Source: Thermoproteota archaeon (lineage in GTDB: Archaea > Asgardarchaeota > Jordiarchaeia > Jordiarchaeales > Freyrarchaeaceae). From it: a DNA stretch of 64,000 nt. A program made the position numbers and the translations under genes. Location of the stretch: positions 1 to 64,000 of the forward strand of contig JAPDJY010000035.1 of assembly GCA_029258835.1 (NCBI GenBank). The letters are read 5' to 3'. The notes under the pieces were generated by a model. The model ran no database searches and was not told where the DNA came from. It saw only the letters and a program-made list of their open reading frames with translations. The stretch's first letter is position 1. The number at the start of each line of letters is the position of its first letter. Shown here in pieces: positions 2,106 through 33,978 of the stretch.

Positions 2106-4979
2106 TTGAAGAGGGTACTGAAAAGAGCTCTCAAAGTAATACCAGCAATACTGATAGTAGTAGTGCTGTTAGCGGTGAGGCTTGGAGCCACGACGCCCAT
2201 AGTTGCGGCGTCAACCCAGAACCCCAATGCAGACACGAAAACATTCATCCCTTGGTGGGAGTGGCTCACAGACAGCGACCACGACGAGCTATCGAACGCT
2301 GTGGAGAGGTTCTTCACCCTCACAAGCCCATACGACCCTGACACCGACGACGACTGGCTGTGGGACGGTTACGAGGTTCAAGTGAATCTGGATCCGAATC
2401 GGGGGGACACTGACTGCGACGGGGTGATGGACGGAGCCGAGCTTGCAAGCGGGCTTAACCCCTGGTTGTGGGACACCGACGGGGACGGCGCAGGCGACGG
2501 GTACGAAACAACTAAAGGCACCGACCCGAAGAACCCCGACACAGACGGCGACGGGCTGCCAGACGGAGGCGAGTTCAGCCATGGCACCGACCCGCATGAC
2601 AGCGACAGCGACGGAGACGGGCTAAAGGACGGGGACGAGGTCAACACCCACCACACGAACCCGACCTGCAACGACACCGACAGCGACGGACTACTAGACG
2701 GAGAAGAAGTTGAAACCTACTCCTATTACAACATAGACCCTCGCAACCCTGACAGCGACGGAGACGGGCTGCCAGACGGGCTGGAGGTCAACACATACGG
2801 CTCAGACCCCGGCAACGATGACACCGACGGGGACGGACTAGAAGACGGGGAGGAAGCGAATAAATACCACACCAGCGTAGTGGCGTATGACTCGGACGGG
2901 GACGGGTTATGGGATGGAAGCGAGGTATTTGGCTCCACAGACCCGCTGTGCAACGACACCGACAGCGACGGACTACTAGACGGAGAAGAAAGTGTATATG
3001 GGACGAACCCCACGGTTAACGACAGCGACGGCGACGGGCTGCTGGACGGGTTCGAGGTCCACAGCTTCGGCAGCGACCCATTGTGTAACGACACCGACGG
3101 AGACGGAGTAAGCGACGGCGTAGAGTACGCCCACTCCTCCAACCCGAACAGCAACGACACCGACGGAGAAGGGCTAACAGACTACGAAGAAATAATGGTG
3201 TACAAAACCGACCCAAACGACCCTGACACGGACGGGGACGGAGTAAGCGACTACGACGAGGTGGCGAACGGCACCAACCCAACAGACGGAGACAGCGACG
3301 ACGACGGACTACCAGACGGGCTCGAATCCTCCATAGGAACCAACCCAAACAACCCTGACACCGACGGAGACGGAGTAAGCGACGGCGCAGAGCACTACGG
3401 AAGACCCTACATCTGCGATAACAGCGTGACGTTTAGCCCCGACCCACTTAACCCCGACACAGACGGCGACGGACTAGAAGACGGAGAAGAGTTCAACACA
3501 ACACTTGGAATGTGGATCACCAATCCTCAAGACCCTGACACGGATGGTGATGAGCTCAGTGACTACGAAGAATTAAAGATTTACTCTACATCGCCGACGG
3601 ACAGAGACAGCGATGATGACGGGTTAACGGATGGTGAGGAAGTTAACCGGGTCAAGACTGACCCGTTGAACGCTGATACTGATGGGGATGGGCTGCTTGA
3701 CGGGAGCGAGAAGCTTAAGAATTGCGATCCTTTTGACCCTGACACGGACGATGACGGCCTCGGCGACTACGATGAGGTGGTCGTGTACTTTACTGATCCA
3801 ACGGATGGGGATAGTGACGATGACCTGTTGAAGGACGGTGAGGAGTTCAATTATGGCACAAGACCTAATGCTAGGGATACTGATGGGGATGGGCTGACGG
3901 ACTACGCTGAGGTTGAGGTGTATGGCAGTGACCCGCTTAGCGTTGACGGGGACGGAGACGGGCTGACAGACTGGCAGGAGTGCGTGGTGTTCCGGAGCAA
4001 CCCGGTGCTCAACGACACGGACGGAGACGGGTTCGAGGACGGATACGAGGCACAGGAGCTTAACACGAGCCCCGTGGAGGCCGACACGGACGGGGATGGG
4101 CTGAGCGACTACGAGGAGGTTATGAGCTACGGCACAAACCCCAACGCTAAGGACACCGACCACGACTACCTGGATGATGGTGGGGAGCTGGACGCCGGCA
4201 CAGACCCGCTCGACGGCGACTGCGACGGCGACGGGCTGCCAGACGGGCTGGAGGTCAACTGCGGGTCAGACCCCCTCAACCCTGACAGCGACGGGGACGG
4301 AGTAAGCGACGGGGACGAAGCCCTGGTCCACTCCTGCAGCCCCGTGTCAGCAGACACCGACGGGGACGGCCTCTCAGACAGTGAAGAAGTTGCTTACGGC
4401 ACCATGCCGGCGAACCCTGACAGCGATGGGGACGGAGTAAGCGACGGCGAGGAGGTCAAGGCTGGAAGCGACCCACTAGACCCGGACAGCGTACCGGGCA
4501 ACGGCAGCCCACCAGCCACGCTCCTCCTCCTGCTCGCAGCGCAGCAACCCAGCACGTTGCCAACCCCGGTCGTAGCCGTGGCTGCGGCCGCGGTCGTTGG
4601 AGCGGTGGCGTGGCTCTGGAGGAGAAGCAGCACGGGTGCGGGAAGCGCGCCGAGGCCGCCAAGCAAACCCCCCGGCAGCCCACCCAGCGTCGACTGGGAA
4701 CACCTCAAATCGTTGGTGAATGACGTGGAGAGAAAGCTGGATGACGTGGAGAGAAGGCTGAGGGATCCGTTGAGGGAAAGGCAGCCCTCCCAGCCGACGC
4801 AGCAGCCGGCACCGTCAAGCCTGGCCAGGATGCTCAACAGCGGAAACGAGTATGAGAGGATGATAGCCCTCGACGCGCTTACCAAGTATGCTAGAGCGAA
4901 GGGTGTAGGCGTTGACCAGCCTATGCATGGCGTCAAGTTGCTGGGCGACGAGGATGAGGAGGGTGCGCAGCCCAGCTAG
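2106..4979 (+). CDS. large membrane-anchored Ca2+-binding repeat protein (TSP3-like DxDGDG repeats)
   Basis: N-terminal signal peptide; dozens of DP-x3-DTDGDGLxDGxE repeats; C-terminal TM helix followed by WRR, a Pro-rich linker and a short coiled coil. Confidence 0.85.
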   Translation: MKRVLKRALKVIPAILIVVVLLAVRLGATTPIVAASTQNPNADTKTFIPWWEWLTDSDHDELSNAVERFFTLTSPYDPDTDDDWLWDGYEVQVNLDPNRGDTDCDGVMDGAELASGLNPWLWDTDGDGAGDGYETTKGTDPKNPDTDGDGLPDGGEFSHGTDPHDSDSDGDGLKDGDEVNTHHTNPTCNDTDSDGLLDGEEVETYSYYNIDPRNPDSDGDGLPDGLEVNTYGSDPGNDDTDGDGLEDGEEANKYHTSVVAYDSDGDGLWDGSEVFGSTDPLCNDTDSDGLLDGEESVYGTNPTVNDSDGDGLLDGFEVHSFGSDPLCNDTDGDGVSDGVEYAHSSNPNSNDTDGEGLTDYEEIMVYKTDPNDPDTDGDGVSDYDEVANGTNPTDGDSDDDGLPDGLESSIGTNPNNPDTDGDGVSDGAEHYGRPYICDNSVTFSPDPLNPDTDGDGLEDGEEFNTTLGMWITNPQDPDTDGDELSDYEELKIYSTSPTDRDSDDDGLTDGEEVNRVKTDPLNADTDGDGLLDGSEKLKNCDPFDPDTDDDGLGDYDEVVVYFTDPTDGDSDDDLLKDGEEFNYGTRPNARDTDGDGLTDYAEVEVYGSDPLSVDGDGDGLTDWQECVVFRSNPVLNDTDGDGFEDGYEAQELNTSPVEADTDGDGLSDYEEVMSYGTNPNAKDTDHDYLDDGGELDAGTDPLDGDCDGDGLPDGLEVNCGSDPLNPDSDGDGVSDGDEALVHSCSPVSADTDGDGLSDSEEVAYGTMPANPDSDGDGVSDGEEVKAGSDPLDPDSVPGNGSPPATLLLLLAAQQPSTLPTPVVAVAAAAVVGAVAWLWRRSSTGAGSAPRPPSKPPGSPPSVDWEHLKSLVNDVERKLDDVERRLRDPLRERQPSQPTQQPAPSSLARMLNSGNEYERMIALDALTKYARAKGVGVDQPMHGVKLLGDEDEEGAQPS

Positions 4980-5267
4980 AGAGTGCTGGCTGGAGCATGC
5001 AACGGACGAAAACGCCAACTCCAGCGGAAAAGCCGGAAAAAACGCCCCCCCACTTTTTCTTGGACTTTCACCGTCCAGCACGGCCATCTTCTTCATGCAA
5101 GGGGGGTCTGCTCCCGTGTGCGGAGAAAAGCAGCGGGTTGGAGGTAAGAGTCGGTGGAGGCACAAGCTGATCTAAAGGTGCAGCTTAAAGGAGGCAGCCA
5201 GACCCCTACATACAAGCACACGCAACACAGAAGGCACGGGGGCTCAAGCACGCTTTAAAGCCATCCT

Positions 5268-5511
5268 AGAGCACACACAAACGAAGCAGCCCAAGCAAAC
5301 AGCCAAAAAACAACACCAGCCCCCGGAAAAGCAGCACACACCACACAAACAACACCAACCACCAGACACCACCCAGCACACACCACACAAACAACAAACA
5401 ACACAACCGCCAGGAAAACAGAACAAAACAGCAGACAAGACAAGAAACCCGCAGCAACCCAACAAGAAACAGCCAAAACCCACCCCAAACCACAGCCAGC
5501 AACACCCGACC
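5268..5511. repeat. low-complexity C/A-rich tract (no T on + strand)
   Basis: 244 nt without a T; non-periodic. Confidence 0.85.
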
Positions 5512-5758
5512 TCCACCTCCCGTGCGGCTACCGCCCCCATTCACCTATGGATAACTCAATAGTGCAAAGGCACCGCCTCAACCTCTAAGCTGTCCCCTCC
5601 CCGGATTTTAACATCCCCCGCCGCCACGCCTCCCACACCCTTATCACCATGCCTGTTTAAAGTTGCTACCCGACACAAGCCTCCTACCCCATGCGTCCGC
5701 TCTGGCGCATGTTGCTTCTCCCGGCTTCTAAGCTCTCCCAAAAAGGGATCGGAGACGT

Positions 5759-6008
5759 GAGGAAGCCACCGGGAAACCCAGCAACACAAAACCAGCCAGC
5801 AACAACACAAAAAACCACCCAGCAGAAAACAACCAACCACAACAACAGCAAAACCCAACACAAACAGCCCACTCCAGCCACAACAACACAAAACAGCAGA
5901 AAAACAGAAACAAAAAGCAAAACAGAACAGAAACAAAAACAGAAAAACAGAAAACAACCCACAAAACAAAGAAAAACCAGAACAAAGGAAAGAACGAGGA
6001 AGCCCAGA
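5759..6008. repeat. low-complexity C/A-rich tract
   Basis: single T (5873) in 250 nt, immediately downstream of the 16S gene. Confidence 0.85.
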
Positions 6009-6047
6009 TCCAAGAAACCCAAACCCAGACCGCACAGCCCAAACCCT
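6007..6047 (-). other. 3' arm of 16S pre-rRNA processing stem (bulge-helix-bulge)
   Basis: Pairs with 7592-7632: 20 bp and 14 bp helices around a 3-4-3 BHB. Confidence 0.9.
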
Positions 6048-6051
6048 GCGG

Positions 6052-7548
<1,497 letters not shown>

Positions 7549-7591
7549 TTTGGGGGGTTGCTCCCCGTGGTTGGAGTGGCCGCAAGGTTTT

Positions 7592-7632
7592 AGGGTTTGG
7601 GCTGTTCTGCGGGGGTTTGGGTTTCTTGGATC
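7592..7632 (-). other. 5' arm of 16S pre-rRNA processing stem (bulge-helix-bulge)
   Basis: Reverse complement of 6007-6047 except for the offset 3-nt bulges. Confidence 0.9.
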
Positions 7633-7778
7633 CGAGTCTCTCGGCTGGGCCGGGTTGCTCGGATCCGCACCGGGTTTGCCCGCAGCTGGAACGCAGCTCC
7701 TTCATTGTTTGCCTATCCGGCTTTCCTCAGGGCTGTACCGGTGCTGCGGGTTGCTCCAGAAGAATGGTGGATGGTTGG

Positions 7779-7796
7779 GAAATATATCTTTTTCGG
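7779..7796 (-). promoter_or_regulatory. putative 16S rRNA promoter (BRE-TATA)
   Basis: Minus strand CCGAAAAAGATATATTT, ~230 nt upstream of the mature 5' end. Confidence 0.6.
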
Positions 7797-7800
7797 TTGT

Positions 7801-8140
7801 TGGGTTCTGTCGGCTGCTGGCTGGGTGGGGGTTGTTGGGTTTTTTGTTGGGGCTTGACGGTTTGATGATGGTGTGTTGCTTTTCTTGCTGGGTTTTCTCG
7901 CTTGTTTTGGTTCTGGGGGTTTTGGCTGGTGATTTTGGGTTGGGGGTGGGTGGCTGTTTAGCCGTGTCTTGCTGTTTTTTTGCTTTTTGGTGGTTGTGCT
8001 TTGGGTTTTATTGCTGTGTGGTTTGTTTTCCTTGTGGGGTTGGGGTGTTTGCTGCTGGGGTTTTTATTGTTTGCTATTTTTCTTGTTTGTTGTGGGGGTT
8101 GTTTGGGTGGTTTTTTTGGGGGGTGTTGTGTGGGTTGGCG
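7801..8140. repeat. low-complexity G/T-rich tract
   Basis: About 8 A in 340 nt on + strand; compositional mirror image of the tracts left of the 16S gene. Confidence 0.85.
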
Positions 8141-8982
8141 TTGTACTTGTGGAGGTATTTTCTTTTTATTAGTTGGTAGGTTGCGTATAGGGTGGCTATT
8201 ATCGCTGCGGCTATGGTGAAGAAGATGGTGTAGGGGTTGCTTGTGAGGGGGTTGTTTGCGAGGAGGGTGTAGAGGGTGTATTGGGTCGCTGTGTCCTGTG
8301 CGGTGTAGATTAGGGTTCTTAGTATTTGGGGGATTAGTACGAGGTTTTGGTATATTGTTTTTCCGAGGTATGCGTACATTAGGGCTCTTGGGAAGGCGCC
8401 GACTGCTGTTGCGGCTATGAAGGGTTTGAAGCCGATTTTTGTTAGTCCTGCTCCGTAGGATACTGCGTCGAAGGGTATTGGGGGTGTTAGCCGGGTGACT
8501 AGGACCGCTATGGCGCCCCATTTTTCCAGCCAGTTGTCTGCGATGAGGATGGCGTCGCCTATCGTTACGAGGAGGACTCGCTCTATTCTGCTTACCTTCC
8601 CGGTGCTTACCTTCCCGGTGTTTGGGTTTTCTTCATGGGGGGTTTGCGCGACCCTTTGCTCCCACCTTGCTATTAGCGGGCGGCCTATTGTCCTTGCAAT
8701 GAAGAATCCGGCTGTTGCTCCGGATATTTCTCCTATTCCGCCGATTGTGGCTGTGGCCAGCATGGCGTAGTCGTATCCGTATAGCATGTTTAGGGGCCAG
8801 TAGATGTAGCTGTAGGCTATTCCTCCGAACATTAGGATTAGCTCGCTTGGGATTACTGCTATTATCGCCTGGATTATCATTGCCGCGTAGAAGCCTAGGA
8901 AGCCGTACTGGATTATCCACCAGAGGACTGTCATGAATAGTCCTTGGAGCCTGCCTTCTAGGTTGATAAGGAGGGGGAGCAT
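8074..8982 (-). CDS. DedA/TVP38/TMEM64 (VTT domain) membrane protein
   Basis: IPSELILMFGG, GATAGFFIAR and RLTPPIPFDAVSYGAGLT motifs. Confidence 0.9.
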   Translation of the reverse strand: MLPLLINLEGRLQGLFMTVLWWIIQYGFLGFYAAMIIQAIIAVIPSELILMFGGIAYSYIYWPLNMLYGYDYAMLATATIGGIGEISGATAGFFIARTIGRPLIARWEQRVAQTPHEENPNTGKVSTGKVSRIERVLLVTIGDAILIADNWLEKWGAIAVLVTRLTPPIPFDAVSYGAGLTKIGFKPFIAATAVGAFPRALMYAYLGKTIYQNLVLIPQILRTLIYTAQDTATQYTLYTLLANNPLTSNPYTIFFTIAAAIIATLYATYQLIKRKYLHKYNANPHNTPQKNHPNNPHNKQEK

Positions 8983-9259
8983 TGTTTAGCCTCCGTGACA
9001 TTCCACTTTTTTCAGGGTTGAACCTTATATTGGTTTTGATGTATGCTTCGCTTGCGGCTGATGCGTGGGCGAGGCGGCTAGCGGGGCGTGTTACGGTTGG
9101 GGTGTGTTACTGTTGATTGCTGGTGTTTGGGTTCTTCTCGCTGTTTTCAGGCTTTCCGGGCGTTTACGTTTAGGGTTGGTTCTGTGTTGCACGTGGGGGC
9201 GGGGTTTAGGTGGGTTGTTTTGGCGGTTTGGTGTTGGCTTCATTAGGGGTGTGTCGCTG

Positions 9260-10456
9260 TCATGCCGTGGGGGCGGCGCTCTTTTCAGGGTTTGCTAGGG
9301 TGAGCAGTGCTAGGGCGAGTTTTACCAGTATTTTCGGGTTTGCTATTAGCTTCTTGATGGCGGCCGACTCGAAGTCCATGTCGCCGTAGGCTTCCATTGT
9401 TTCGGTGCCTCCATGCTCGATGAGGGCTTTGAAAAGCGAGTCTAGGGCGTGATCGCTTAGACGGTTTAGTACCCGGCGGGCCAGCTTCATGTAGGAGAAC
9501 TCCTTCCCCAAGATTTTTTCCCATCTTTGCTGGTACCGCTTCAGGAAACCGCTTGAGAAGCGTTCTTCCTGGAGTGCTTCGGATGCCACTTGGCCTGCTA
9601 TCCTCGAGCAGATCCCTCCGGTAACCACGCCTCCCCCCGTGGTAGGTTTAACTTGTCCTGCTGCGTCGCCCACGGCCATGAAGCGGTCCGTGAACGTCCT
9701 TTTAACCGGGCCATTAGTGAGGACCACACCGGCCACTGTACGGGAGACCTTTGCCCTTGGAAAACGCGTGCTTAAGAACTTTGCCAGACGTTTCCGGGGG
9801 TGAGAGCGGGCGGCGAGCCCAACCCTTGCTCCTTCATCCGTCGGGATCACCCATGCGAAGAAGCCGGGTGCCAGTCTGCCGCCGAAGTGTAGCTCGACGA
9901 AGTCGGGGTCTACGTCTACCCCGCGTACTTCGAACTGGACGGCGGGGAGCCGGCCTCTGAGGGGGGGCAGCCCTGCGATCTTGGCGAGGCGAGCCCTGCA
10001 GCCTTCAGCGTCTATTAGCAGTTTGCATTTCTCTTCGCCTCCGCCTTTAACGTGGACGTGCACGCCATCCAAGCTCCTCACGAAGGAGGTAACCTTCCTT
10101 TTAAGGGTGAGGTGTGCCCCTGCGCTTTGAGCGAGGGATGCAAGCCACCGGTCAAACATCCGCCTGTCTATGACTAGTGCCTGCACGCTTCTCCGGGACA
10201 CGGAGAATGACACGCCTGAAGGGGAGTAGAAGCGGGCACCGTAAACCCTGTTTAGGACGCATTCCTCCGGTACTCTGAGGCCGAGGCGCTTCAGGCCTGT
10301 AACGCTCACTAGGCCTGCACAATGGTCTGGTTCACCTACTTTCCCGTGTTCCTCTAGGACGATGACGTTTAACCCTCTGATGGATGATTCGAGAGCTGCA
10401 AGGGATCCGGCTGGGCCGCAGCCGACGACTGCGACGTCCCAGTTCAACGCTTCCAC
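9260..10456 (-). CDS. geranylgeranyl reductase family flavoprotein (DGGGPL reductase-like)
   Basis: DVAVVGCGPAG, IDRRMFD, PGFFAWVIP, VGDAAGQVKPTTGGG. Confidence 0.92.
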   Translation of the reverse strand: MEALNWDVAVVGCGPAGSLAALESSIRGLNVIVLEEHGKVGEPDHCAGLVSVTGLKRLGLRVPEECVLNRVYGARFYSPSGVSFSVSRRSVQALVIDRRMFDRWLASLAQSAGAHLTLKRKVTSFVRSLDGVHVHVKGGGEEKCKLLIDAEGCRARLAKIAGLPPLRGRLPAVQFEVRGVDVDPDFVELHFGGRLAPGFFAWVIPTDEGARVGLAARSHPRKRLAKFLSTRFPRAKVSRTVAGVVLTNGPVKRTFTDRFMAVGDAAGQVKPTTGGGVVTGGICSRIAGQVASEALQEERFSSGFLKRYQQRWEKILGKEFSYMKLARRVLNRLSDHALDSLFKALIEHGGTETMEAYGDMDFESAAIKKLIANPKILVKLALALLTLANPEKSAAPTA

Positions 10457-10566
10457 CCTTCACGCTTATCTAGGGCTCACCGTAACCTTCACTTAACTTT
10501 TCAACGGTTCCCCCCTTAAGCTTTTTAGTGAGTGTTACGTTGTGATGGCTGCTGGAGGGGCGCTGG

Positions 10567-10923
10567 TTGTTTAGGTATAAGATGGTTATTCTCGTGAGGA
10601 CTGACCTGAAGATGAGCAAGGGCAAGATTGCTGTTCAGGCTGCTCACGCAGCAGTCTCTGCCGCTGAGGAGGCAAGGCGTAAACGTCCTAAATGGTGGGA
10701 GGAGTGGCTCAGGGAGGGACAGAAAAAGGTCGTTTTAAAAGTTGCATCCCTTGAAGAGCTGGAGTTCTTCGAGAGGGAGGCTGCTAGGAGGAAGCTGCCT
10801 CACGCCAAGATACAGGATAGAGGGTTAACGGAGGTGCCTCCGGGAAGCGTTACAGCCTTAGGTATAGGGCCTGCCCCAAGCGAGGTCATTGACGAGTTAA
10901 CGGGGGGGCTCCCCCTGCTTTAA
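10567..10923 (+). CDS. pth2: peptidyl-tRNA hydrolase Pth2
   Basis: KMVILVRTDLKMSKGKIAVQAAHA, GQKKVVLK, DRGLTEVPPGSVT. Confidence 0.97.
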   Translation: MFRYKMVILVRTDLKMSKGKIAVQAAHAAVSAAEEARRKRPKWWEEWLREGQKKVVLKVASLEELEFFEREAARRKLPHAKIQDRGLTEVPPGSVTALGIGPAPSEVIDELTGGLPLL

Positions 10924-10947
10924 CGTGTCGCAGCCGGGGGAGGCGTC

Positions 10948-12300
10948 GTGAACGTGGAGGAGGAAATCGGCATCCTTTTCTTCATGACCGATACTCCCGG
11001 CGTGGGCGGCCGCCTCAGGGTTAGACTGGAGGATTTCATCGTGGAGGAGGTTACCCCTGAAGGGAGGATCCTTAGGTTTGGAATGGAAGAGAAGGGTGGA
11101 GGAGGGGTGGAGGAGAAGGGTGGAGGAGACTACTGCGTCTTCATCGTTGAAAGGTACGGGGGATACGACACTTTTGAAACCGTAAGAGTGCTTGCTAGGA
11201 CTTTAGGGGTTAGCAGGAAAAGGTTCTCTTACGCGGGGGTTAAAGATAAGAGGGCGGTGGCTGTTCAGAGAATGAGCGTGTGGAGGGTTGACCCGGAAAG
11301 GTTGAGGAGGGTCAGGGTTAAGGGTTTAACGATAAGGGAGGTTTGCCGTTCAAGCGAGAAGGTTAGGCTGGGCGGACTCCTAGGTAACAGGTTTAAGGTG
11401 AATGTGAGAGAGGTCAGGTTGCCCCTCTACAGGGCTGAGGAGAGGGTTGTAAGGATCATTGAGGAACTGAAAAGTAAAGGGGGGATGCCGAACTTTTACG
11501 GGCATCAAAGGTTTGGGGTTGTGAGGCCCTTAACACATGTTGTCGGGCTGAAGATTTTAAGGGGAGACTATGAGGGGGCGGCGATGGACTTCCTAGCTAA
11601 GGTTTACCCTTTAGAGGGGGAGGATGCTAAGGACGCTAGGGCGCACCTTCTAGAAACAGGAGACTTTAAGGAGGCATTAAGAAGGTTTCCCGAGAGGCTG
11701 CGCTATGAAAGGGCGATGCTTAACCATCTGGTTAATTCCCCTAGAGACTATGTAGGGGCCTTCAGAAGGCTTCCGCGGGGATTAACTAGAATGTTCATTC
11801 ACGCCGCTCAATCCTACATTTTCAACTTAACGTTGAGTCTGCGGAAAAGGGAGGGGTTGCCGTTGAACACCGTCCTGGAAGGAGACTACGCTGCAATCCT
11901 ACTTAGAGGTGTTCCCAGCACGTTCATAAAGGTGGACGGTGGAAACGTCGAGAAGGTTAGAGCGCTGATCAGTAAGGGAAGAGCTGCATTAGCTCTCCCG
12001 GTGGTGGGCTACGACACCGTTATCCCGCCGGACAGCCCTTCAAGAAAGCTTGTGGAGGAAGTGCTTTCAAAAGTGGGAGTAACCATGGAGATGTTTAGGG
12101 TGCCGTCGATGCCCGAGTTAGCTGCTAGAGGAGGGTTCAGGACGGCGCTGGTTAACCCTCAAGCGTTAAGTGTCGCAAGGGTTTCAAGGGATAAGATGGG
12201 GGGCGGAGTCATGGTAAGGCTTGTCTTCACGCTTCCGAAAGGAAGCTATGCTACGTGCCTGCTCCGTGAAGTGATGAAAACCGACCCTGCAAAATATTAA
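10948..12300 (+). CDS. truD: tRNA pseudouridine(13) synthase TruD
   Basis: EDFIVEE, YAGVKDKRA, GNRF, PNFYGHQRFG, FTLPKGSYAT. Confidence 0.97.
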   Translation: MNVEEEIGILFFMTDTPGVGGRLRVRLEDFIVEEVTPEGRILRFGMEEKGGGGVEEKGGGDYCVFIVERYGGYDTFETVRVLARTLGVSRKRFSYAGVKDKRAVAVQRMSVWRVDPERLRRVRVKGLTIREVCRSSEKVRLGGLLGNRFKVNVREVRLPLYRAEERVVRIIEELKSKGGMPNFYGHQRFGVVRPLTHVVGLKILRGDYEGAAMDFLAKVYPLEGEDAKDARAHLLETGDFKEALRRFPERLRYERAMLNHLVNSPRDYVGAFRRLPRGLTRMFIHAAQSYIFNLTLSLRKREGLPLNTVLEGDYAAILLRGVPSTFIKVDGGNVEKVRALISKGRAALALPVVGYDTVIPPDSPSRKLVEEVLSKVGVTMEMFRVPSMPELAARGGFRTALVNPQALSVARVSRDKMGGGVMVRLVFTLPKGSYATCLLREVMKTDPAKY

Positions 12301-19422: not shown

Positions 19423-20565
19423 ATGGGCAGAGACGAACTTCTCATGATACCGGGTCCAACATTTATGGCCGAGAGGACGCTTAAAGCCATGAGTAAGCCC
19501 ATGATATCTCACAGGGGGGAAGAAACCGGCAGAATGCTAATCGAGTGTATTGAGAAATTAAAGAAGGTTTTCAGAACGGAAAACGACGTATTCATATTAA
19601 CTGCTTCAGGTACTGGCGCCATGGAGGCGGCTATTGCAAATGTGGTGGAGCCAGGTGACAGAGTCCTCTGTACAACATGTGGGAAGTTCAGCGAACGATT
19701 TAAGAAAATCGCTGAGGTATTCGGCGCTGAGGTTCTAGAGGTAGCCTCCGAATGGGGCGACGCCGTTGACCCGGAGAGAGTTAAAGAAATTCTGGATGAG
19801 CACGACGATGTTAAGGCCGTCACGGTTACCCACAATGAAACGTCTACGGGAGTAAGAAACCCTGTAGAGGAAATATCAAGAATAGTTAAGGATTATGGAA
19901 CGCTTCTCATAGTGGACGCTATTTCAAGTATGGGAGGCGATCACGTCCCGGTCGACAAATGGAACATTGATATTTGCCTGGCAGGTAGCCAGAAGTGCTT
20001 CGCGATCCCGCCGGGATTCTCGTTCATCTCGGTCTCAGACCATGCATGGGAGGTCATAAATAAGACTAGAAGAAGAACATTCTACTTTGACTTGCCAGCT
20101 TACAGGGAGAGTTTAAGGAGGAAGCCTCCGCAGACCCCGTACACGATATCGATAACGCTTCTCTACGCATTAGAGGACACATTGAAACTCATGTTCGACG
20201 AGGGATTAGATAATGTCATAGCTAGACACCATCACGTAGCTAAGATCGCAAGGGAAGGAGTCAAAGCGATGGGACTCAGGCTCTTCCCAGTAAGCGAAGA
20301 CATATGCTCAGCCACCGTTACAGCTGTTAGGCTTCCAGACGGAATAAGGGAAAAGGAGCTACGCCAAAAAGTGAGAGATTATGGCGTCGTGATCTCTGGA
20401 GGACAAGATAAGCTTTCAGGGAAAATATTCAGAATAGGGCACATGGGACGCGTTACCGAGAGGGAGATCCTAGCAACTCTACAAGCTATACAACAAGCAC
20501 TTTTAGACTTGGGAGTTAAGGTTGAAACGGACGCATATATGCAAGCTATAGAAAAAATACGGTAA
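19423..20565 (+). CDS. class V PLP aminotransferase (serine-pyruvate/alanine-glyoxylate type)
   Basis: LMIPGPT, SGTGAMEA, HNETSTG, VDAISS, GSQK, FRIGHMG. Confidence 0.93.
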   Translation: MGRDELLMIPGPTFMAERTLKAMSKPMISHRGEETGRMLIECIEKLKKVFRTENDVFILTASGTGAMEAAIANVVEPGDRVLCTTCGKFSERFKKIAEVFGAEVLEVASEWGDAVDPERVKEILDEHDDVKAVTVTHNETSTGVRNPVEEISRIVKDYGTLLIVDAISSMGGDHVPVDKWNIDICLAGSQKCFAIPPGFSFISVSDHAWEVINKTRRRTFYFDLPAYRESLRRKPPQTPYTISITLLYALEDTLKLMFDEGLDNVIARHHHVAKIAREGVKAMGLRLFPVSEDICSATVTAVRLPDGIREKELRQKVRDYGVVISGGQDKLSGKIFRIGHMGRVTEREILATLQAIQQALLDLGVKVETDAYMQAIEKIR

Positions 20566-20609
20566 GAGGCGGGGAAACAACTTCCTTTTACCCGGTTTAT
20601 TGACTGTTT

Positions 20610-20954
20610 TTATTCTACCTCGTCGCGTAGCATTGCCCTACGTCCCTTGGAGGTTAATACTACCTTATCGCCTTTAAGGTTTACGAGTCCTTCTCGCTGC
20701 ATCAGAAGGACGACGCGCTCCACTTCCCAATCCTCCGCTTTAAGACGCCTAGCTAGCTCCTCGATTGTACCTGCAAATTGAAGCGCCCTCATAACGTTCT
20801 TAAATGAAATGTCGGGTTCCTCTCTGCCGCTTTGCACAAGCCCGCAGACACTGCAAACGCGGATCCGTTGAGAAAAATCGAAGAGAACCGGGCCACCACA
20901 AGCTTCACATCTTTGCCTTGTATAACGCATGCTATAACGCCTTTCCCTTGACAA
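20610..20954 (-). CDS. Zn-ribbon + winged-helix protein
   Basis: CEACGG..CSVCG; C-terminal GTIEELARRL..GLVNLKGDKVVLTSKG. Confidence 0.7.
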   Translation of the reverse strand: MSRERRYSMRYTRQRCEACGGPVLFDFSQRIRVCSVCGLVQSGREEPDISFKNVMRALQFAGTIEELARRLKAEDWEVERVVLLMQREGLVNLKGDKVVLTSKGRRAMLRDEVE

Positions 20955-21000
20955 ATTACCACCAGCAAATCCTTAAGGGAGGCAGATATTAACCGGTTTA

Positions 21001-22200
21001 CTAAGCGGATTGCCTTTTAAAGTGCTTTATCCTCTCTCTCATGAACTCTATGATTTCCCCAGCTTTTAACTTTACCCGTTCATCTCTCTCGTTTAACAGT
21101 ACACCCTCAATGATAGAGGCTGCTTCTTCGGATATTTGAGGGTTATTCACGCTAATCCAACCTATGGACTCTACCGCGCACCTTCTAACCTCCGGATTCT
21201 CGTCTTCAAGGAGGGAGGAAACAGCGTTAATTGCCGTTTTTGCTGCTTCTTCGGGAAGCTCGGGGTTATTGCCGATGAGCCAGCCTATAGCCAGCGTAGC
21301 CGTCGCCCTTACAGACACCTTACGCGATTCAAGCGCCTTTAGCAGTTCGGGTATCATGTGAGGTATTGCTTCGGGGCTCCCTGTCCCTATTAAACCAAGG
21401 GTTACTACTATTTTCCAGTCTGCTTTCCCTTCTAAAGACACATTTTTAAGTACAACCGAGGCAACGGCGCGCGCTAGTTCACTCTTCTCCTTACATACTT
21501 CTATTATGGCTTCCATTGCACTGCCACGTATGTTCTCGTTTTCGTCAATGACAGATATTAACGCTAAGTCCTCCACTGCACCCTCGAGTTTTAAAGCGTT
21601 CCCGTGAGATATTGACGCTAGGGCATCTATAGCGCTTAAACGGACTTCTTCCGCCTCACCGGGTTTAGACAGCTCAAGTAATTGTGGAATGTACTTCTCT
21701 ACCAGCTCGGCATCTATGCTACCAATCCATCCAAGAGCCATAGCTGAAGTGATCCTGTTAATCTCAAAGCTAGATTTAAGCCCAGCCCCGATCTTATCTA
21801 TGAATGGGGCAATCAAACCGGGCTGGCTCCCGCCGATCCACCCAAGGGCTACAACAGCATTCCATGCTAAGTCACTATCTTGTAGGCTGAGGTTTGACAC
21901 CACTTCATGCACGTGCCTTTCGACTATTTCAGGAAATTCAAAACTCACTTTTCCTAGTAATTCAAGAGCGTTTCCCCTAACATAGACGTGAGGATCTTGA
22001 AGTGCCATCCTAAGAACCTGCGGGAACGCCTCCTCGATTATTCGGCGAAATTTTCCCATAATAACACTGATTACGGTAAGCGATGCCACTTTAACTTCTG
22101 GATCCTCGTCGTTCATTAACTCCTTTAAGATTTTTAACGCTCCAAGCTCGTCTCCTTCATGGAGGAGGAGGCCAACTTCTTCAAATAATTTTTCCTTCAA
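21001..22200 (-). CDS. HEAT-repeat protein
   Basis: Repeated LxDxxxxVRxxAxxALGxI motifs. Confidence 0.9.
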   Translation of the reverse strand: MKEKLFEEVGLLLHEGDELGALKILKELMNDEDPEVKVASLTVISVIMGKFRRIIEEAFPQVLRMALQDPHVYVRGNALELLGKVSFEFPEIVERHVHEVVSNLSLQDSDLAWNAVVALGWIGGSQPGLIAPFIDKIGAGLKSSFEINRITSAMALGWIGSIDAELVEKYIPQLLELSKPGEAEEVRLSAIDALASISHGNALKLEGAVEDLALISVIDENENIRGSAMEAIIEVCKEKSELARAVASVVLKNVSLEGKADWKIVVTLGLIGTGSPEAIPHMIPELLKALESRKVSVRATATLAIGWLIGNNPELPEEAAKTAINAVSSLLEDENPEVRRCAVESIGWISVNNPQISEEAASIIEGVLLNERDERVKLKAGEIIEFMRERIKHFKRQSA

Positions 22201-22244
22201 AGACGCACGCTCCTTCTAAGCTTAAATTGATCATGCATTGCATT

Positions 22245-24626
22245 TTACCTCAGCTTTCTAAGCTCACTAACGGATCTCATGTAAGCTTGTGCAATCTCCT
22301 TGGCAACGGCAGGAATTAAGTAGCGGTCCACGTCTCCCTCCATTACATGTTTCATTGAGCTTTTAGGCGAGAGTTTCCCTTTTATCTTAAGCTCAGAAAA
22401 AATGGACTTTACGGTTTTAAGTGCATCGCTAAAGGACGATGGCTTACGCAGCCGCTTCGCATTTTGTGGAAGGGCTTCCTCTATGGTTTTAAGGGAGAGA
22501 AAGTAAAAGTGAGCTAAAGCTTCCAGAGGGCCTTCAACAATAGGGGTTACGTACCCATGCTCTGGGCACACATCATCCCTCAGTTTTCGGGCACAGTAAG
22601 GGCATATTCGGCTTCCAACTTCTTGCCTTATGAAGAGTTTGCTTATGGCCTCTATTTTTTGAGTATCTTTCTGGGTCCATTCGAGTTCAGCCTTCTCTAT
22701 CCCGCTCGGCGCCTTAAGGGCGATTTTTATTTTTCGTTCAAGTAAGCTGGTTGGCTCTAAACGCTCGTATACCCTTCTCTTGGCTTTCTCCTCTTCTTCA
22801 AGCATCCTTGCCCTAGCTTCCTTAACCGTTTTAGCCTGTTCAAGTTGAATGCTGATATATCTTTGAGCCAAATCATATGCAGTAGCGTAGCTTACTGGAG
22901 GTAACGACTTAAAGTTTAATGGGGCACTTACCGTACTCGCAAAAAGAGGGCTCGGTGTTTCTTCAAGGATTCTTACAGATTTTTCCATGGGGATCATTGC
23001 TTGACGCGCCCATATAAAGCTACATATCTTTAACGTATCCAAATCGGGGAAGGCCTCACGTATTTCCATTTGCCTTCGTATTATGAGTTCAACAAGCATC
23101 TCCTCCTTTACACATCTTATGTTAACATCTGGTTCCTCTATGACAACTTTGAAGAAAATCTTAAAGCGTTCACTATCCTTTTTAAGCCGGTTATAGAGTT
23201 CTACCACACGTGACGCGTGCGCTAGACACTCAAAAAACAATGCCTGCATGACCTGTCTAACTAAGTTATCCAATGTTACTTCAAACTCTACAGCAACCTT
23301 TAACATGTTAATGTCCGTAGTGCCTAAGGTATCCAGTATCTTACGCATCGAAGCTTCATTTTCAAGTAACTCCCTAAACTCTTCTGGGGGAGGCGGAGAA
23401 ATATGTTTTTTAACCTCGTTTATTATGAGCTCTTCCAGCTTACTTAACTTAGAGGGAGGAACAGTAAACATCTCTAGGTTAACTGTATGAACAGAGTAGC
23501 CCTGGCCTCTGAGACGGGGAATCACTTTTTCCGTTAAGACGCTTCTCACTCTTTCAAGGCGCTTATATCTTTCTAGCATGAAACTAAGGTCGCTTTTACT
23601 TATCCCCAGCTCCTTAAACTTGCTCAGTACATCCTTTGATGACGTTTCCCCTGAAAGGGCTGCCTGAAGCATACTTAAATCTATTCCTAGACGTTCTATC
23701 CTTTCCTCTCCAGCTAGGAAAGAAAGGATTCTCCTGAGAACTAACACGTTTTTTGACTTATCTTTAATGCTGGATGTAAGCGTTCTTAATGCTTCATTGA
23801 ACAGGTTCTCTAAGCTTGTCTTTTCACGCGTATATTTTTTGAATAAACCTATTAGGAGAAGCTTTAGTCCGCAAGCTTCTATATATGTTCTTAGTTCTGC
23901 TTGATCTTTTGGGAGGCGACTAAAAATACGTGATGATATTTCCTTTGAAAGATATGATAATTGCTTGACATTTAATGGTGACTCATTTAAACCGGCTAGC
24001 TCTCTCAGTCTGTCTTTAACTTTTATAAACGTTGATATTTCGACGCATTCCTCTTCATGAGGGTTCTTAACCTCTTCCTCAAGCTCCAGAGATAGAGGTT
24101 TCAGCCCGTAAGTTTTCTTTAAGAACTCAGATCTGAAGTTATAGGAGATACCTAGTAAATCACCTAAGAAGTCTATTAGATGTGTGGTTGGAAACTTGGA
24201 GGATACCTCTACAATGTAGCGTTTTGGGATATCTTCAACGCTGGGTTTTCCGTCAAGTTTAGCCTTAGCCATAGCTAACTCAAGTTCTGTCTTTTTCTCT
24301 AAGAGAAGAACGTCTTTCTGAAAATTATCGTTTAAAATTATAGATATTTCTTTAAAAAGGTCACGTTTCTCTTTTATGGTGGTATCGTCTTCTCTCTTGA
24401 ACGATGCTCCTGCATCCATGGGGGAAACTGTTCGAATACCAATGTAGCTATAAATTTGCGATACCATGGCGGCTTTTACGAAGTCTTGCAGAAAAGCACT
24501 TTCCCCTACAAGCATTTCAAACCTAGACCAGTTAGATTTCGAAGCAAGAAAATTGCTTAAAAATTCTCTGACAGCAAACCCTGGAGCAACCTCTCTCAGA
24601 ATATCCCTTTGCGTGGACGCCCACAT
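22245..24626 (-). CDS. hypothetical 793-aa helical protein with C-terminal Zn knuckle
   Basis: Long ORF; CPYC-x8-CPEH; ATG overlaps upstream stop (TAATG). Confidence 0.8.
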   Translation of the reverse strand: MWASTQRDILREVAPGFAVREFLSNFLASKSNWSRFEMLVGESAFLQDFVKAAMVSQIYSYIGIRTVSPMDAGASFKREDDTTIKEKRDLFKEISIILNDNFQKDVLLLEKKTELELAMAKAKLDGKPSVEDIPKRYIVEVSSKFPTTHLIDFLGDLLGISYNFRSEFLKKTYGLKPLSLELEEEVKNPHEEECVEISTFIKVKDRLRELAGLNESPLNVKQLSYLSKEISSRIFSRLPKDQAELRTYIEACGLKLLLIGLFKKYTREKTSLENLFNEALRTLTSSIKDKSKNVLVLRRILSFLAGEERIERLGIDLSMLQAALSGETSSKDVLSKFKELGISKSDLSFMLERYKRLERVRSVLTEKVIPRLRGQGYSVHTVNLEMFTVPPSKLSKLEELIINEVKKHISPPPPEEFRELLENEASMRKILDTLGTTDINMLKVAVEFEVTLDNLVRQVMQALFFECLAHASRVVELYNRLKKDSERFKIFFKVVIEEPDVNIRCVKEEMLVELIIRRQMEIREAFPDLDTLKICSFIWARQAMIPMEKSVRILEETPSPLFASTVSAPLNFKSLPPVSYATAYDLAQRYISIQLEQAKTVKEARARMLEEEEKAKRRVYERLEPTSLLERKIKIALKAPSGIEKAELEWTQKDTQKIEAISKLFIRQEVGSRICPYCARKLRDDVCPEHGYVTPIVEGPLEALAHFYFLSLKTIEEALPQNAKRLRKPSSFSDALKTVKSIFSELKIKGKLSPKSSMKHVMEGDVDRYLIPAVAKEIAQAYMRSVSELRKLR

Positions 24627-27286
24627 TATTCCCCCTCCGTTTCGCTCAGCTTTAAGTCAAGTAGATTGTTTCCTATAATCATCCTAACAGTTTTTGGGTC
24701 GGGATATTCATAGAGAACTAGATAATTAAGTTTCGGCTGGCTTTCGCTTTGTAAAAGAAGTCTTGCAGGTCTAAGAAGAATGTAACTAAACGCCTTAAGA
24801 AAAATGCGTTCCATATATGTCTTGAATTCATCGAAAAGCCCTTCAATTGCTATGTGTGGAACCTCAGATACGAGTTTTTCACGTATGAAGGGCTGTAGTT
24901 CCGTCTTCACTATATGCGGAAGGAAAAGGGTTTCCTCAGACGTATGAGAGTAGTTTTCAAGAAACTTTGTAAGGGCTGACTTTATCTCCTCTTTCCATCT
25001 TATTTCATCATTCAACCTTGAAATTTCATCTGAAATTTTCTCTAAGTCCAGATGCAATTGTTTTAAAGCATTTTTAAAGCGTTCCTTCGCCTCGATCGCT
25101 TCACCCAGCGCCCTATCAATCCGCTCAATTTCAGAAATGATTTTTTGCACTTCCAATGTTGTAGTTTGTAGCTCCGCTTCTAAATTGTTTTTCTGCTCTA
25201 ATAGGGGAGGTTTATCCTCTTCACGTGCCGAGGTTAGAGTTTGACGTATTTTCTCAAGAAGGTCTTTCTTTTTCTCTAACCGCTCCCGTAGTTGTTTTAA
25301 CGTTGAAACTTTCACGCTGTAATCGGTTTTAAGACGGATCTCAAAGTTTTCCGTCGAGTCTAATTGTGACTGTACAACATCTATTTGCCGTTCAATACCA
25401 TTTCTTTTTTCCATTAACTCGGATAAGCTGCTTAAAAGTGAATCGATTTCTTGCTGATGGTCTCTAAGCTTAGTCTCTAAGATTTCTTTTGGCTTATCTT
25501 TTGATGATTCTTCATCTCTAACTCTGTTTATGAAGTCAACAAACTCCGCTACGAGGCCGCATATGTCAGGTTTACCCTTAAAGGTTAATACGAAAAGTTC
25601 TAACCAGCTTTTCGCTAAGCGCTCCCATTTAGGGAACTCCTTAACGTCCCGAAGGATGAAGCTAAAGAATTTTTCAGAGAAAACTTGTGGGGAAGTTATG
25701 TCTGGATTATGCTCTAAGAAGGCGCCTAGAACATTATGGCTAAGAAGGTAGTCTGAAAGGCCGGGAACAACCTCTGAGACGTGCTCACGCACTTCCTGAT
25801 AAACGTCTTTAACTATGTTGCGTGTTTCTGGCGTTATTTCGGCTAGTGTCACGTTAAAAGCGATTTCCAGAATCTCTGGAATCGAGAAAAGATCCTCGTC
25901 GCCTTCAAGTTGAGAGATGAGATCATCTTTAAGTCTACTTCTGAAAATGTTGAAATCCCAGTTTAAAGGGATCTCCGGACTTTTATTCTCAAACCAGCTC
26001 TCCAGCTTTTCTTTAACTTTATTAATATATGCTTCAACCACTTTTCTGCGGATAGGGTCAACGATGTTTCTAACAAAATCTTCGAGGAGCCTCCTAGCCA
26101 CGATTGTTTCGATCTGCATGAAAACGAAAGATGAAATGGCCCTTTCAAAGAAACCAAGTCCTTTTTCCGCTTGTTCAAGGAAATATGATACTTCATCTTT
26201 GAGATCCCAACTCCAAATCTCCTCTTCAGGAGCCCGTTCATTAAACAAGAAATTAGCTAGGACATCTTTAAACTTTTTAGCCAGACCTTCAACGTCGATT
26301 CTATCTAAGTGATTTCTTAGTAGGTCTTTCTCGCCGGCTTGAAGGAGGGAGTTAAGCTTCTCTTTTAGCAGGTTGAATGAGGCTTTGGCTTCATCCATGA
26401 GCAAATCACAATCTTCTAGGATGTTTTTAACGTCGATCAAACCTGGAGTAATTCGCTCCCATAATGTTTCAGCTAAACGCAATGCAATATTTTCTCCAAT
26501 CTCGTTTACAGTGTAATCATTGATTAGAGATAATATTTCCCGACCTATAAGGCCAACATCGTTTATGAGAACTTCAAGCGCAGTCTTCGTGAAAATCAGA
26601 CTTTTAAGGTATTCGAAATCCTTGGAGACGTTTTGCTTTTCAAACGAGATCTTTTTAACTGACGCGTTAAAGCCGAGGGGTTTAACGCCATAATTTACTT
26701 CGATGGGGCCTTCAACTATTAGGCCGCTTAGAATTTTTAAATGAGCTAGGAGATCCCTTGCATACTTTTCCCTATACTTTTTCTGCGATGCCTCGCCGTA
26801 AATCCTTCTAGTAAAGCGCTCTACAAATGACTGCATAACAAGCTTCGTATCCTGAGAACTTAATTTTGAGGCAGTGCAAGCTAGTCGGATATCCTTAAGC
26901 CTACTTGAAAGTTCTCCCGCTAACTCCATAACTTTAAATACGTCCACTAAACCCTTCTCGTGCTCTAACAGTACGATGAAGTTTGATGATTCCTCGTCGC
27001 CTCCTGTAACCAAAGCCATCGCTTCAGGAAGATTTCCCTTTTCAGTCCCAACAATATCAAACTCTATGAAACCAAGTGAAACGCCACTTTCCTCTGAAAG
27101 AAGACGGTTGAGCATATGAACTGCTTCCGCAACCTCTGAAGCTAGTTTTTCAGCCCCCTTCCTACTGAGACCTTTAGGGCCAACAGAGAACCCAAACGAG
27201 CTCTCGTCTATTGAATAGCCAAAAACTGAAAAGTCAGCGATCCTTAATGCTTCGATGGTACTCATGGAGCTTCTACGAGACAACAA
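24626..27286 (-). CDS. hypothetical 886-aa protein with long coiled-coil segment
   Basis: Long ORF; heptad-rich segment at roughly aa 590-780; no Walker motifs seen. Confidence 0.8.
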   Translation of the reverse strand: MLSRRSSMSTIEALRIADFSVFGYSIDESSFGFSVGPKGLSRKGAEKLASEVAEAVHMLNRLLSEESGVSLGFIEFDIVGTEKGNLPEAMALVTGGDEESSNFIVLLEHEKGLVDVFKVMELAGELSSRLKDIRLACTASKLSSQDTKLVMQSFVERFTRRIYGEASQKKYREKYARDLLAHLKILSGLIVEGPIEVNYGVKPLGFNASVKKISFEKQNVSKDFEYLKSLIFTKTALEVLINDVGLIGREILSLINDYTVNEIGENIALRLAETLWERITPGLIDVKNILEDCDLLMDEAKASFNLLKEKLNSLLQAGEKDLLRNHLDRIDVEGLAKKFKDVLANFLFNERAPEEEIWSWDLKDEVSYFLEQAEKGLGFFERAISSFVFMQIETIVARRLLEDFVRNIVDPIRRKVVEAYINKVKEKLESWFENKSPEIPLNWDFNIFRSRLKDDLISQLEGDEDLFSIPEILEIAFNVTLAEITPETRNIVKDVYQEVREHVSEVVPGLSDYLLSHNVLGAFLEHNPDITSPQVFSEKFFSFILRDVKEFPKWERLAKSWLELFVLTFKGKPDICGLVAEFVDFINRVRDEESSKDKPKEILETKLRDHQQEIDSLLSSLSELMEKRNGIERQIDVVQSQLDSTENFEIRLKTDYSVKVSTLKQLRERLEKKKDLLEKIRQTLTSAREEDKPPLLEQKNNLEAELQTTTLEVQKIISEIERIDRALGEAIEAKERFKNALKQLHLDLEKISDEISRLNDEIRWKEEIKSALTKFLENYSHTSEETLFLPHIVKTELQPFIREKLVSEVPHIAIEGLFDEFKTYMERIFLKAFSYILLRPARLLLQSESQPKLNYLVLYEYPDPKTVRMIIGNNLLDLKLSETEGE

Positions 27287-27489
27287 TTACCCTCCCAGCA
27301 ACAAATTAAGAAAGGTAATGAAGACCCTTTCATTTCAAACACTAAACCATATCTCGATTTCGATGTTTAAATTAAATAAATTAATTAAAGGTTTAATAAG
27401 ATTTGCCACCAAAATGACTCTTTAAATACCCAGCAGGGGATGATTCCCATTAAAAGGGTAATAAAACGTCATGAGGGAGATAAGGTAAA

Positions 27490-33606: not shown

Positions 33607-33978
33607 TTGACGAAAATTGATGAAATTTTAGAGTTACTTCGTAACATGGAAGCATCCACGCCTGGTATCGAGGCGAGTGCGGTAGTAAGCACTGAGGGAC
33701 TTCCAATCGCATCGGCGATGCCACAAGAAGTTGATGATGCTGTTGTGGCGGCGATGGCATCAGCGATCCTCAGCGTTTCAGAGAGAGTTAGCACTGAGCT
33801 CGTCAGAGGCAAACTGCAGCAAGTTTTGGTTCAAGGAGATTTAGGATACGTGATAATTAAGGGTGCTGGAGAAAACGCGTTGATTACCGTCCTTGCAAGA
33901 AATGATGCTAACCTAGGATTGATACTTATGGTCCTAAAGAAAATCTCGGAGGAAATTAAGAGGCTACTTGAAGAATAA
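33607..33978 (+). CDS. roadblock/LC7 domain protein
   Basis: IEASAVVSTEGLPIAS, VAAMASAILS, LGLIL; likely TTG start at 33607. Confidence 0.92.
   Translation: MTKIDEILELLRNMEASTPGIEASAVVSTEGLPIASAMPQEVDDAVVAAMASAILSVSERVSTELVRGKLQQVLVQGDLGYVIIKGAGENALITVLARNDANLGLILMVLKKISEEIKRLLEE

Follow-up and report, generated by a model that had tools for sequence, protein, structure and literature searches.

We analysed a 64-kb stretch of archaeal DNA (the window; positions 1 to 64,000 of contig JAPDJY010000035.1, assembly GCA_029258835.1), in which a sequence-only reading had singled out four co-oriented genes of 886, 793, 399 and 114 aa as an uncharacterised operon. All four open reading frames (ORFs) are present on the minus strand, and we refer to them as gene A (24626-27286; 886 aa), gene B (22245-24626; 793 aa), the HEAT-repeat gene (21001-22200; 399 aa) and, after its Zn ribbon and its winged-helix-like (winged helix-turn-helix, wHTH) part, the Zn-wHTH gene (20610-20954; 114 aa). 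The TAATG overlap of the first two genes and the spacing of about 45 bp between the others were also as described. At the A/B junction (24624-24645, minus strand), the stop and start codons overlap, and a GGAGGGGG Shine-Dalgarno-like run lies just 5', within the end of A; the B/HEAT and HEAT/Zn-wHTH spacers measure 44 and 46 bp, with a purine-rich run ahead of each start. The host had been taken for an Asgard archaeon, in agreement with the labels of near-identical database proteins (Candidatus Freyarchaeota or Jordarchaeales), and the 16S rRNA in the window (6053-7548) is archaeal. The unit of interest at this locus is two genes, not four: the best-supported statement that we can make is that A and B, the two core components, form an obligate, translationally coupled pair specific to several Asgard classes.

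The distribution of the pair was determined by running the family profiles of the two proteins (alignments A1 and A2) against 400 genomes of the Asgard phylum. Each profile matched 232 of the 400 genomes, with nearly identical tallies from one genome family to the next. We number these families f1, f2 and so on, f1 being the family of the studied genome and f2 its sister family. The pair was present in 4/4 genomes of f1, 5/6 of f2, 121-122/135 of f9, 14/14 of f28, 2/2 of f26, 1/1 of f27, 4/4 of f29 and 1/1 of f33, as well as in 78-79 of the 89 genomes of three further families, f7 among them. No profile matches were found in f5 (0/31), f21 (0/22), f12 (0/19), f14 (0/12) and f23 (0/12). Thirteen of 40 close relatives carry A, and the same thirteen carry B; the two genes are adjacent in each, in unchanged order. 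Further, of 29 loci sampled from all positive lineages, 27 have A immediately 5' of B, with a gap of -44 to +21 nt (27 loci) and an overlap in 15. The A-then-B order is also kept in f29, and f26 is the only lineage in which A and B lie on different contigs. The proteins measure about 770-1070 aa (A) and about 800 aa (B) across the family. When 1.84 billion representative proteins were scanned exhaustively, only 39 clusters of B relatives came to light, and those B-related clusters that carried a source name in a word-index search were labelled Jordarchaeales, Thorarchaeota or Promethearchaeota. A host available in enrichment culture, Candidatus Lokiarchaeum ossiferum Loki-B35, also carries the pair (CP104013.1, about 3,340,964-3,346,117), in short versions of 785 aa for A and 815 aa for B, with a two-transmembrane protein of 94 aa.

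Most positive genomes gave a single match per profile; two matches per profile were seen in many g10, g58 and g64 genomes. One Loki-type locus (L090, G259:C211:11000-22532, positions 3179-11128) holds an A gene, a 118-aa N-terminal fragment of B and then, in tandem, a second A with a full-length B, which reflects either a recent tandem duplication, one copy being truncated, or an error of assembly. The very divergent f29 lineage has an A orthologue that fits the profile in its helical middle part only and a B orthologue (L093:9692-11488, G294) of just 598 aa, covering profile positions 17-608 and lacking the C-terminal domain with the zinc knuckle. An in-frame TGA had been flagged in A genes of Thor-type genomes; where this could be checked (L046), the flagged stop was the terminal stop codon within the match.

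The AlphaFold2 model of A, computed from a 34-sequence alignment (pLDDT, the predicted local distance difference test score, 86.5; pTM, the predicted template modelling score, 0.74), was divided into domains by DSSP secondary structure. All coordinates that follow for A are on the minus strand. Residues 10-167 (26786-27259) make up an N-terminal alpha/beta domain with the order helix, two strands, helix, three strands and two helices, and are the most conserved part of the protein (T10, G32, G36, E75, L78, P87, G95, L107, L142, F154 and R157). A second alpha/beta domain is opened by strands at residues 186-215 (26642-26731) and closed, far downstream, by a strand, a helix, three strands and a helix at residues 811-885 (24632-24856). 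Between these two parts lie an acidic helical insert domain with a net charge of -25 (residues 233-597; 25496-26590), in which G248, L252, N256, G318, L515 and W554 are conserved, and an antiparallel coiled-coil hairpin (residues 598-805; 24872-25495). The hairpin consists of two long helices (598-686 and 689-805), and its tip at 687-688 falls at the start of the AREEDKPP segment (687-694). Both the alpha/beta N terminus of A and the coiled coil broken at AREEDKPP, which had been proposed from the sequence, are thus seen in the model. In this model, the second alpha/beta domain appears to be split by a helical insert of about 600 aa. This arrangement is supported by a shape search of the ESM Atlas with the A model, which found only two Promethearchaeota families, of 302-344 aa, that resemble the A head and align over about 225 residues across A 14-875 (template modelling score 0.51-0.54 by the shorter protein). 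These families were not recovered by an A-profile database search for shorter relatives, which gave one 76-aa fragment only. No paralogues of the A domains were found in the studied genome.

The coiled-coil insert of A varies from one lineage to another. It is 220-230 aa long and heptad-rich in Jordarchaeia and 160-190 aa long with a proline-rich centre in the Thor-type family, and measures 79-96 aa, with no long coil, in the Loki-type families. The long coiled coil is a lineage-specific expansion, and the idea of a coiled-coil scaffold does not hold as a feature of the family.

The AlphaFold model of B (pLDDT 85.2, pTM 0.70) is helical throughout, save for a small zinc knuckle, and may be divided into domains at approximately 20-175, 190-320, 330-610 and 650-793. 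The most conserved block in alignment A1 spans residues 473-589 (22860-23210, minus strand), where the near-invariant residues include R473, E476, Y478, D484, K493, E508, R518, E521, R541, S559, Y580, D585 and R589. The knuckle, a CxxC...CxxH motif (CPYC...CPEH), was located at residues 675-690 (22557-22604, minus strand), as the sequence-only reading had led us to expect of the 793-aa protein. It is an optional module, being found in Jord-type, Thor-type and some Loki-type sequences and cleanly deleted, with a loss of about 28 aa, in a Loki-type subset. The C-terminal part of B (616-793) has an isoelectric point (pI) of 9.7; the median pI is 6.6 for the B family and 5.4 for the A family. Comparison of A with B, and of B with itself, by hhalign revealed no homology between the two proteins and no internal repeat in B.

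We then consider whether either protein has known relatives. Pfam, NCBIfam and PADLOC contain no family for A or B, apart from coiled-coil noise in A, and a sequence search of the PDB with the A and B profiles returned noise only. The NCBIfam SMC/Rad50 models touch residues 585-806 of A alone, at 15-28 bits against cut-offs of 567-1087, and PADLOC matched only the coiled coil of A (583-806) to JetC and LmuB (E >= 1e-5), gave generic HEAT matches and matched nothing in B. Whole-model fold searches (Foldseek and VIA wide) gave no match above noise for the B model and generic coiled-coil matches only for the A model; in these searches, neither A nor B yielded a match to the CATCHR, adaptin, kleisin and HAWK folds, against which the sequence-only reading had proposed to compare the proteins. 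ESM Atlas feature searches with B and with A residues 1-235 yielded no usable match. As had been noted from the sequence, catalytic motifs, P-loop included, were found in none of the four proteins. The Walker patterns [AG]xxxxGK[ST] and hhhhD[DE] do not occur in A or B of the studied genome, and of 34 family members only 2 show a P-loop pattern, as a chance occurrence. Because A and B fall outside every family and fold tested, we rate the pair as not assignable to any known kind.

The secondary-structure order of the N-terminal domain of A is of the Roadblock/longin type, and is also PAS-like. A likeness to longin or uDENN folds had been proposed; the order of helices and strands fits it, but no sequence or fold test bore it out. 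Robl_LC7 (PF03259) and Longin (PF13774) matched none of 34 family members, even at E <= 1, and no Pfam folliculin match was found. An hhalign comparison of the A N-domain with the Roadblock proteins of the studied genome (using a Roadblock alignment that included one mis-framed row) gave a probability of 0.2%, and the head and the C-terminal part of A were also null. A domain-level fold search could still place the A head among longin/Roadblock proteins.

The other two genes of the locus behave differently from A and B. The 399-aa protein is a HEAT-repeat protein, as had been suggested (HEAT_2, E 2.4e-28). Its Adaptin_N and Cnd1 matches, at 63 and 60 bits, also exceed the Pfam cut-offs, and we regard them as generic, since both lie below HEAT_2 at 98.7 bits. 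The 114-aa protein has a CxxC...CxxC ribbon and weak winged-helix matches. Both genes follow B in all five f1 genomes, co-oriented and with short spacers. In f2, orthologues of the two (34-36% identity for HEAT and 43-49% for Zn-wHTH) are about 2 kb apart, with two opposite-strand genes between them; in the closed f2 genome G006 some 30 kb separates this couple from A-B, and in the three other f2 genomes in which both were found they lie on a different contig from A-B. The class-V aminotransferase gene that adjoins this module in the studied genome does so in f2 as well. Neither gene was found near A-B in sampled loci of any lineage other than f1; in those other lineages, B is followed instead by genes for 4-(hydroxymethyl)-2-furancarboxaldehyde-phosphate synthase (f2), fusions of dihydrodipicolinate synthase (DHDPS) with formaldehyde-activating enzyme (Fae) (f7) or a small membrane protein (f9 and f28). 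Beyond the order, nothing matches the HEAT protein at E <= 1e-10. Synteny across Asgard genomes, the check proposed for the four-gene operon, fails for half of it. We conclude that the HEAT-repeat gene is a neighbour outside the conserved pair, that the Zn-wHTH gene is a companion of the HEAT gene and not of A-B, and that the two form a separate neighbouring module that is co-oriented with A-B only in f1.

Three kinds of gene recur beside the pair in other lineages. First, a small protein of 85-103 aa with two predicted transmembrane (TM) segments and a Lys-rich C-terminal tail is encoded directly after B in all 11 of the Loki-type (f9 and f28) loci that extend past B (L026, L031-L037, L042, L043 and L047). 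In f26, a two-TM protein with a long charged N-terminal extension follows the unlinked A (L091:6656-7102 and L092:9349-9726). No Pfam family was found for these two-TM proteins, and the profile of the Loki-type form had no match in the studied genome. Second, a conserved Roadblock/LC7 gene lies divergent beside A in 8/8 f9 and f27 loci with upstream sequence, for example at L034:6849-7235 (-) and L030:4953-5372 (-), with equivalents in L035-L037, L043, L047 and L027. This A-adjacent subfamily is distinct and well conserved, scoring weakly with Pfam (about 30 bits) and giving E 1e-35 to 1e-83 with its own profile, where the weaker values are those of truncated ORF calls. Third, an Arf/Rag-like GTPase gene adjoins B in f26, and a small-GTPase gene lies two genes after B in f2. 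The background per genome is 15-18 Roadblock genes and 29-105 GTPase-model matches, and we treat the GTPase and Roadblock neighbours of the pair as a lead, not a finding.

We also note some other neighbours. In both genera of f26, a coiled-coil protein of about 413 aa is encoded divergently upstream of the unlinked A (L091:9575-10816 (+) and L092:5573-6817 (-)); its sub-threshold matches to BLOC1_2, Snapin/Pallidin and BORCS6/7 are probably coiled-coil noise. In Thor-type genomes, two tandem DHDPS-family/Fae fusion genes follow B, directly or past one small gene, and a metallo-beta-lactamase/ODP-family gene lies 5' of A. This neighbourhood is conserved over several genera (L024:3428-6339 and L025:180-3252, with equivalents in L039, L040 and L044-L046). 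The small genes after B in the Thor-type family encode a conserved HPYEVPEF motif, which may be that of CutA-type proteins, and no predicted TM segment.

At the studied locus, the AT-rich region of about 200 bp upstream of A (27287-27489) is shared with a divergent radical-SAM gene. It contains TATA-like runs, and GGGAGGG precedes the TTG start of A; judged by these features, it is a candidate promoter of A. Inspection of the sequence revealed no T-run between any of the four genes, and a T6 run at 20552-20557 (minus strand), 52 nt past the last stop codon, may be an archaeal terminator of the local four-gene unit. RNA-library contigs from a single marine sediment sample (two metatranscriptome runs) match parts of all four genes at 99-100% identity, which is compatible with their expression and is not proof of it. 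One such contig (run X19; window 20570-20942) spans the Zn-wHTH gene; its end, at 20570, falls 13 nt short of the T6 run. This end is compatible with a transcript end at the T6 run and offers a weak hint, as contigs cannot show ends. None of the RNA contigs runs from B into the HEAT gene, so they do not demonstrate a transcript common to the four genes, and stretches of A and B are also without RNA-contig cover; we consider that the HEAT-repeat gene is probably co-transcribed with A-B at the present locus. Nearby genes in the window encode a radical-SAM/TRAM enzyme, a class II aminoacyl-tRNA synthetase, a beta-CASP RNase, an M24 peptidase and a class-V aminotransferase.

The reading that we favour, with a probability of roughly 0.4, is that A and B form a membrane-proximal, non-enzymatic scaffold linked to small-GTPase/Roadblock-type switches. 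The two proteins are encoded on a single message with coupled translation and would most likely work jointly, in a complex without enzymatic activity. Such an A-B complex is plausible because the pair strictly co-occurs, is translationally coupled and has no enzyme signature. In the complex, the alpha/beta head of A would serve as a docking platform and its helical arm as a spacer of variable length, which in the studied genome would be an antiparallel coiled-coil hairpin of about 100 residues. The complex would be located at or near the membrane, where it would be tied to small-GTPase/Roadblock switches, and would be neither an ATP-driven SMC-like machine nor an enzyme. The two-TM neighbours hint at the membrane, and the Roadblock and GTPase neighbours, with the secondary-structure order of the A N-domain, at the switches. 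What the analysis establishes is how conserved and how widespread the pair is, its coupling, its domain layout and its lack of known relatives; any function of the pair, like the binding of A to B, the membrane association and the GTPase link, is something that we infer.

Several observations count against this proposal. The Roadblock/longin likeness of A is one of secondary-structure order alone, Pfam and hhalign being negative and fold searches having returned coiled coils only, and the invariant charged residues of the conserved B block could equally belong to an unrecognised active site or to a surface that binds nucleic acid. As for the GTPase, Roadblock and two-TM neighbours, each is confined to certain lineages and none lies beside the pair in the studied window; by a rough estimate, neighbours of this sort would be met in 3 of about 7 lineages with a chance of 1-3%, for lineages that were not chosen blind. 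The window does contain a Roadblock/LC7 gene (33610-33972 (+); Pfam E 9.8e-18), about 6 kb from A, and a Roadblock gene is likewise placed in genome G001; as an orthologue of the Loki-type neighbour, however, the window gene was rejected, its best matches there being other Roadblock genes, and it falls into a different Roadblock subfamily from that neighbour. Further, the RNA-library contigs may derive from DNA.

A more specific version of the GTPase-linked scaffold, which we find rather doubtful, is an Asgard-specific membrane platform for small-GTPase signalling, built of divergent longin/Roadblock-like domains and a new helical fold and, in Lokiarchaeia, equipped with a Roadblock protein and a two-TM anchor. 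If this were true, archaea would have invented, in this platform, either a parallel to or a kind of forerunner of the longin-based guanine-nucleotide exchange factor (GEF), GTPase-activating protein (GAP) and tether complexes of eukaryotes.

Of the alternatives, the one that survives best makes A and B a structural scaffold of the membrane or cytoskeleton, serving for example cell shape, protrusions or division, with no GTPase link. Conservation, coupling and the lack of enzyme motifs speak for it just as they do for a GTPase-linked scaffold, and so do the two-TM neighbour in Loki-type lineages and the confinement of the pair to certain Asgard lineages, Lokiarchaeum ossiferum included. We nevertheless hold it to be unlikely, given that no similarity to a known cytoskeletal or division protein was seen and that no two-TM gene lies beside the pair in Jord- or Thor-type genomes.

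It is distinctly less probable that B is, by itself or jointly with A, a helical enzyme that has escaped recognition, or a nucleic-acid binder, with its site in the Arg/Glu/Asp/Tyr/Lys cluster at 473-589 and with the basic Zn-knuckle domain holding RNA or DNA. The fifteen near-invariant and mostly charged residues of that block would suit such a role, as would the combination of a pI of 9.7 with the CxxC...CxxH knuckle in B 616-793 and the position of a single-copy, core-like pair amid translation and RNA-processing genes. However, B matches no enzyme family or fold, the knuckle is dispensable in many Loki-type members, and the family medians indicate that the pI is not consistently basic.

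The multi-subunit structural complex that the sequence-only reading had inferred stands as far as a co-occurring and coupled A-B pair makes a complex plausible, but does not extend to the HEAT and Zn-wHTH genes, which are not syntenic with it in relatives. We therefore consider it very unlikely that all four genes encode a coat-like, tether-like or chromosome-organising complex in which a coiled-coil scaffold and its helical partner are joined by a HEAT solenoid and a Zn-wHTH protein. Its support comes from the co-orientation and short spacers in five f1 genomes, from the T6 run after the last gene with no T-run within the unit, and from the Adaptin_N and Cnd1 matches of the HEAT protein. Against these stand the separation of the HEAT/Zn-wHTH module in f2 by some 30 kb and its absence beside A-B in other lineages, the generic nature of the HEAT matches together with the lack of matches to the protein beyond the order at E <= 1e-10, and the shrinkage of the coil to about 80 aa in Loki-type families.

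We give little credence to a chromosome-organising machine of the SMC/Rad50 kind that is devoid of an ATPase, whether by loss or from the outset. As in SMC, Rad50 and MukB with their kleisin and HAWK partners, the antiparallel hairpin of A joins the N- and C-terminal parts of one chain, and in f1 the gene downstream of A encodes a large partner, with a HEAT gene coming next. Unlike those proteins, A has no ABC ATPase head, Walker motifs, hinge, zinc hook or CxxC at the tip, its coil is not conserved in the family, and the HEAT gene is not a conserved partner. Least probable of all is an anti-virus defence system or mobile-element cargo, as suggested by the size and uncharacterised nature of the proteins and by weak PADLOC matches to JetC, LmuB and HEAT models, because the pair is single-copy, almost always present within its lineages and in stable synteny among housekeeping genes, no phage matches were found, and the PADLOC matches are coiled-coil/HEAT noise.

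Research on Asgard archaea has mostly been directed at their eukaryote-like proteins. A and B represent the opposite case, two proteins of about 90-100 kDa without a detectable relative, domain family or solved fold, which almost all genomes sampled from several Asgard families (Jordarchaeia, Thor-type and Loki-type among them) keep as a single-copy, translationally coupled unit. Near-universal lineage-specific genes of this kind usually mark an undescribed core cellular process. Because the pair is present in the cultured Lokiarchaeum ossiferum, its partners and location are directly testable, and the recurrent two-TM, Roadblock and small-GTPase neighbours provide specific candidates for its binding partners. 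Newly recognised here are the split second domain of A, the lineage-dependent length of its coil, the optional zinc knuckle of B and the separate HEAT/Zn-wHTH module, as well as the two-TM, Roadblock and GTPase neighbours with their background counts, the unlinked arrangement in f26 and the occurrence of the pair in L. ossiferum.

Finally, we compared the pair with known systems. Like the subunits of eukaryotic coats and tethers (the adaptin/COPI solenoids and CATCHR rods), A and B are large helical proteins without catalytic motifs, and in f1 they have a HEAT neighbour that passes the Pfam Adaptin_N cut-off. GAP longins of the folliculin/SMCR8/NPRL2 type have a GP motif that opens strand 2 or immediately precedes it, as well as a catalytic arginine finger (PMC12290439). 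Judged by secondary structure in the AlphaFold2 model, the near-invariant G36 of A, with P37, comes after strand 2 (29-35), and the near-invariant R157 sits in a helix. The longin/Roadblock platforms that regulate small GTPases include MglB, Ragulator/LAMTOR, Mon1-Ccz1 and folliculin-FNIP, and Asgard archaea have Roadblock and longin proteins of their own (PMC10933270, PMC12290439). The pair differs from such platforms in that A resembles Robl_LC7 or Longin neither in sequence nor by profile and has a second domain split by the insert of about 600 aa, that B is an all-helical protein of 800 aa with no DENN, longin or Roadblock part, and that no GTPase is fused or constantly linked to A-B. What the pair has in common with them is the order of the A N-domain (two strands, a helix, three strands and helices) with a second alpha/beta domain after it, the Roadblock or small-GTPase genes that lie beside it in three lineages and, if A and B do form a complex, an assembly of two subunits that looks non-enzymatic.

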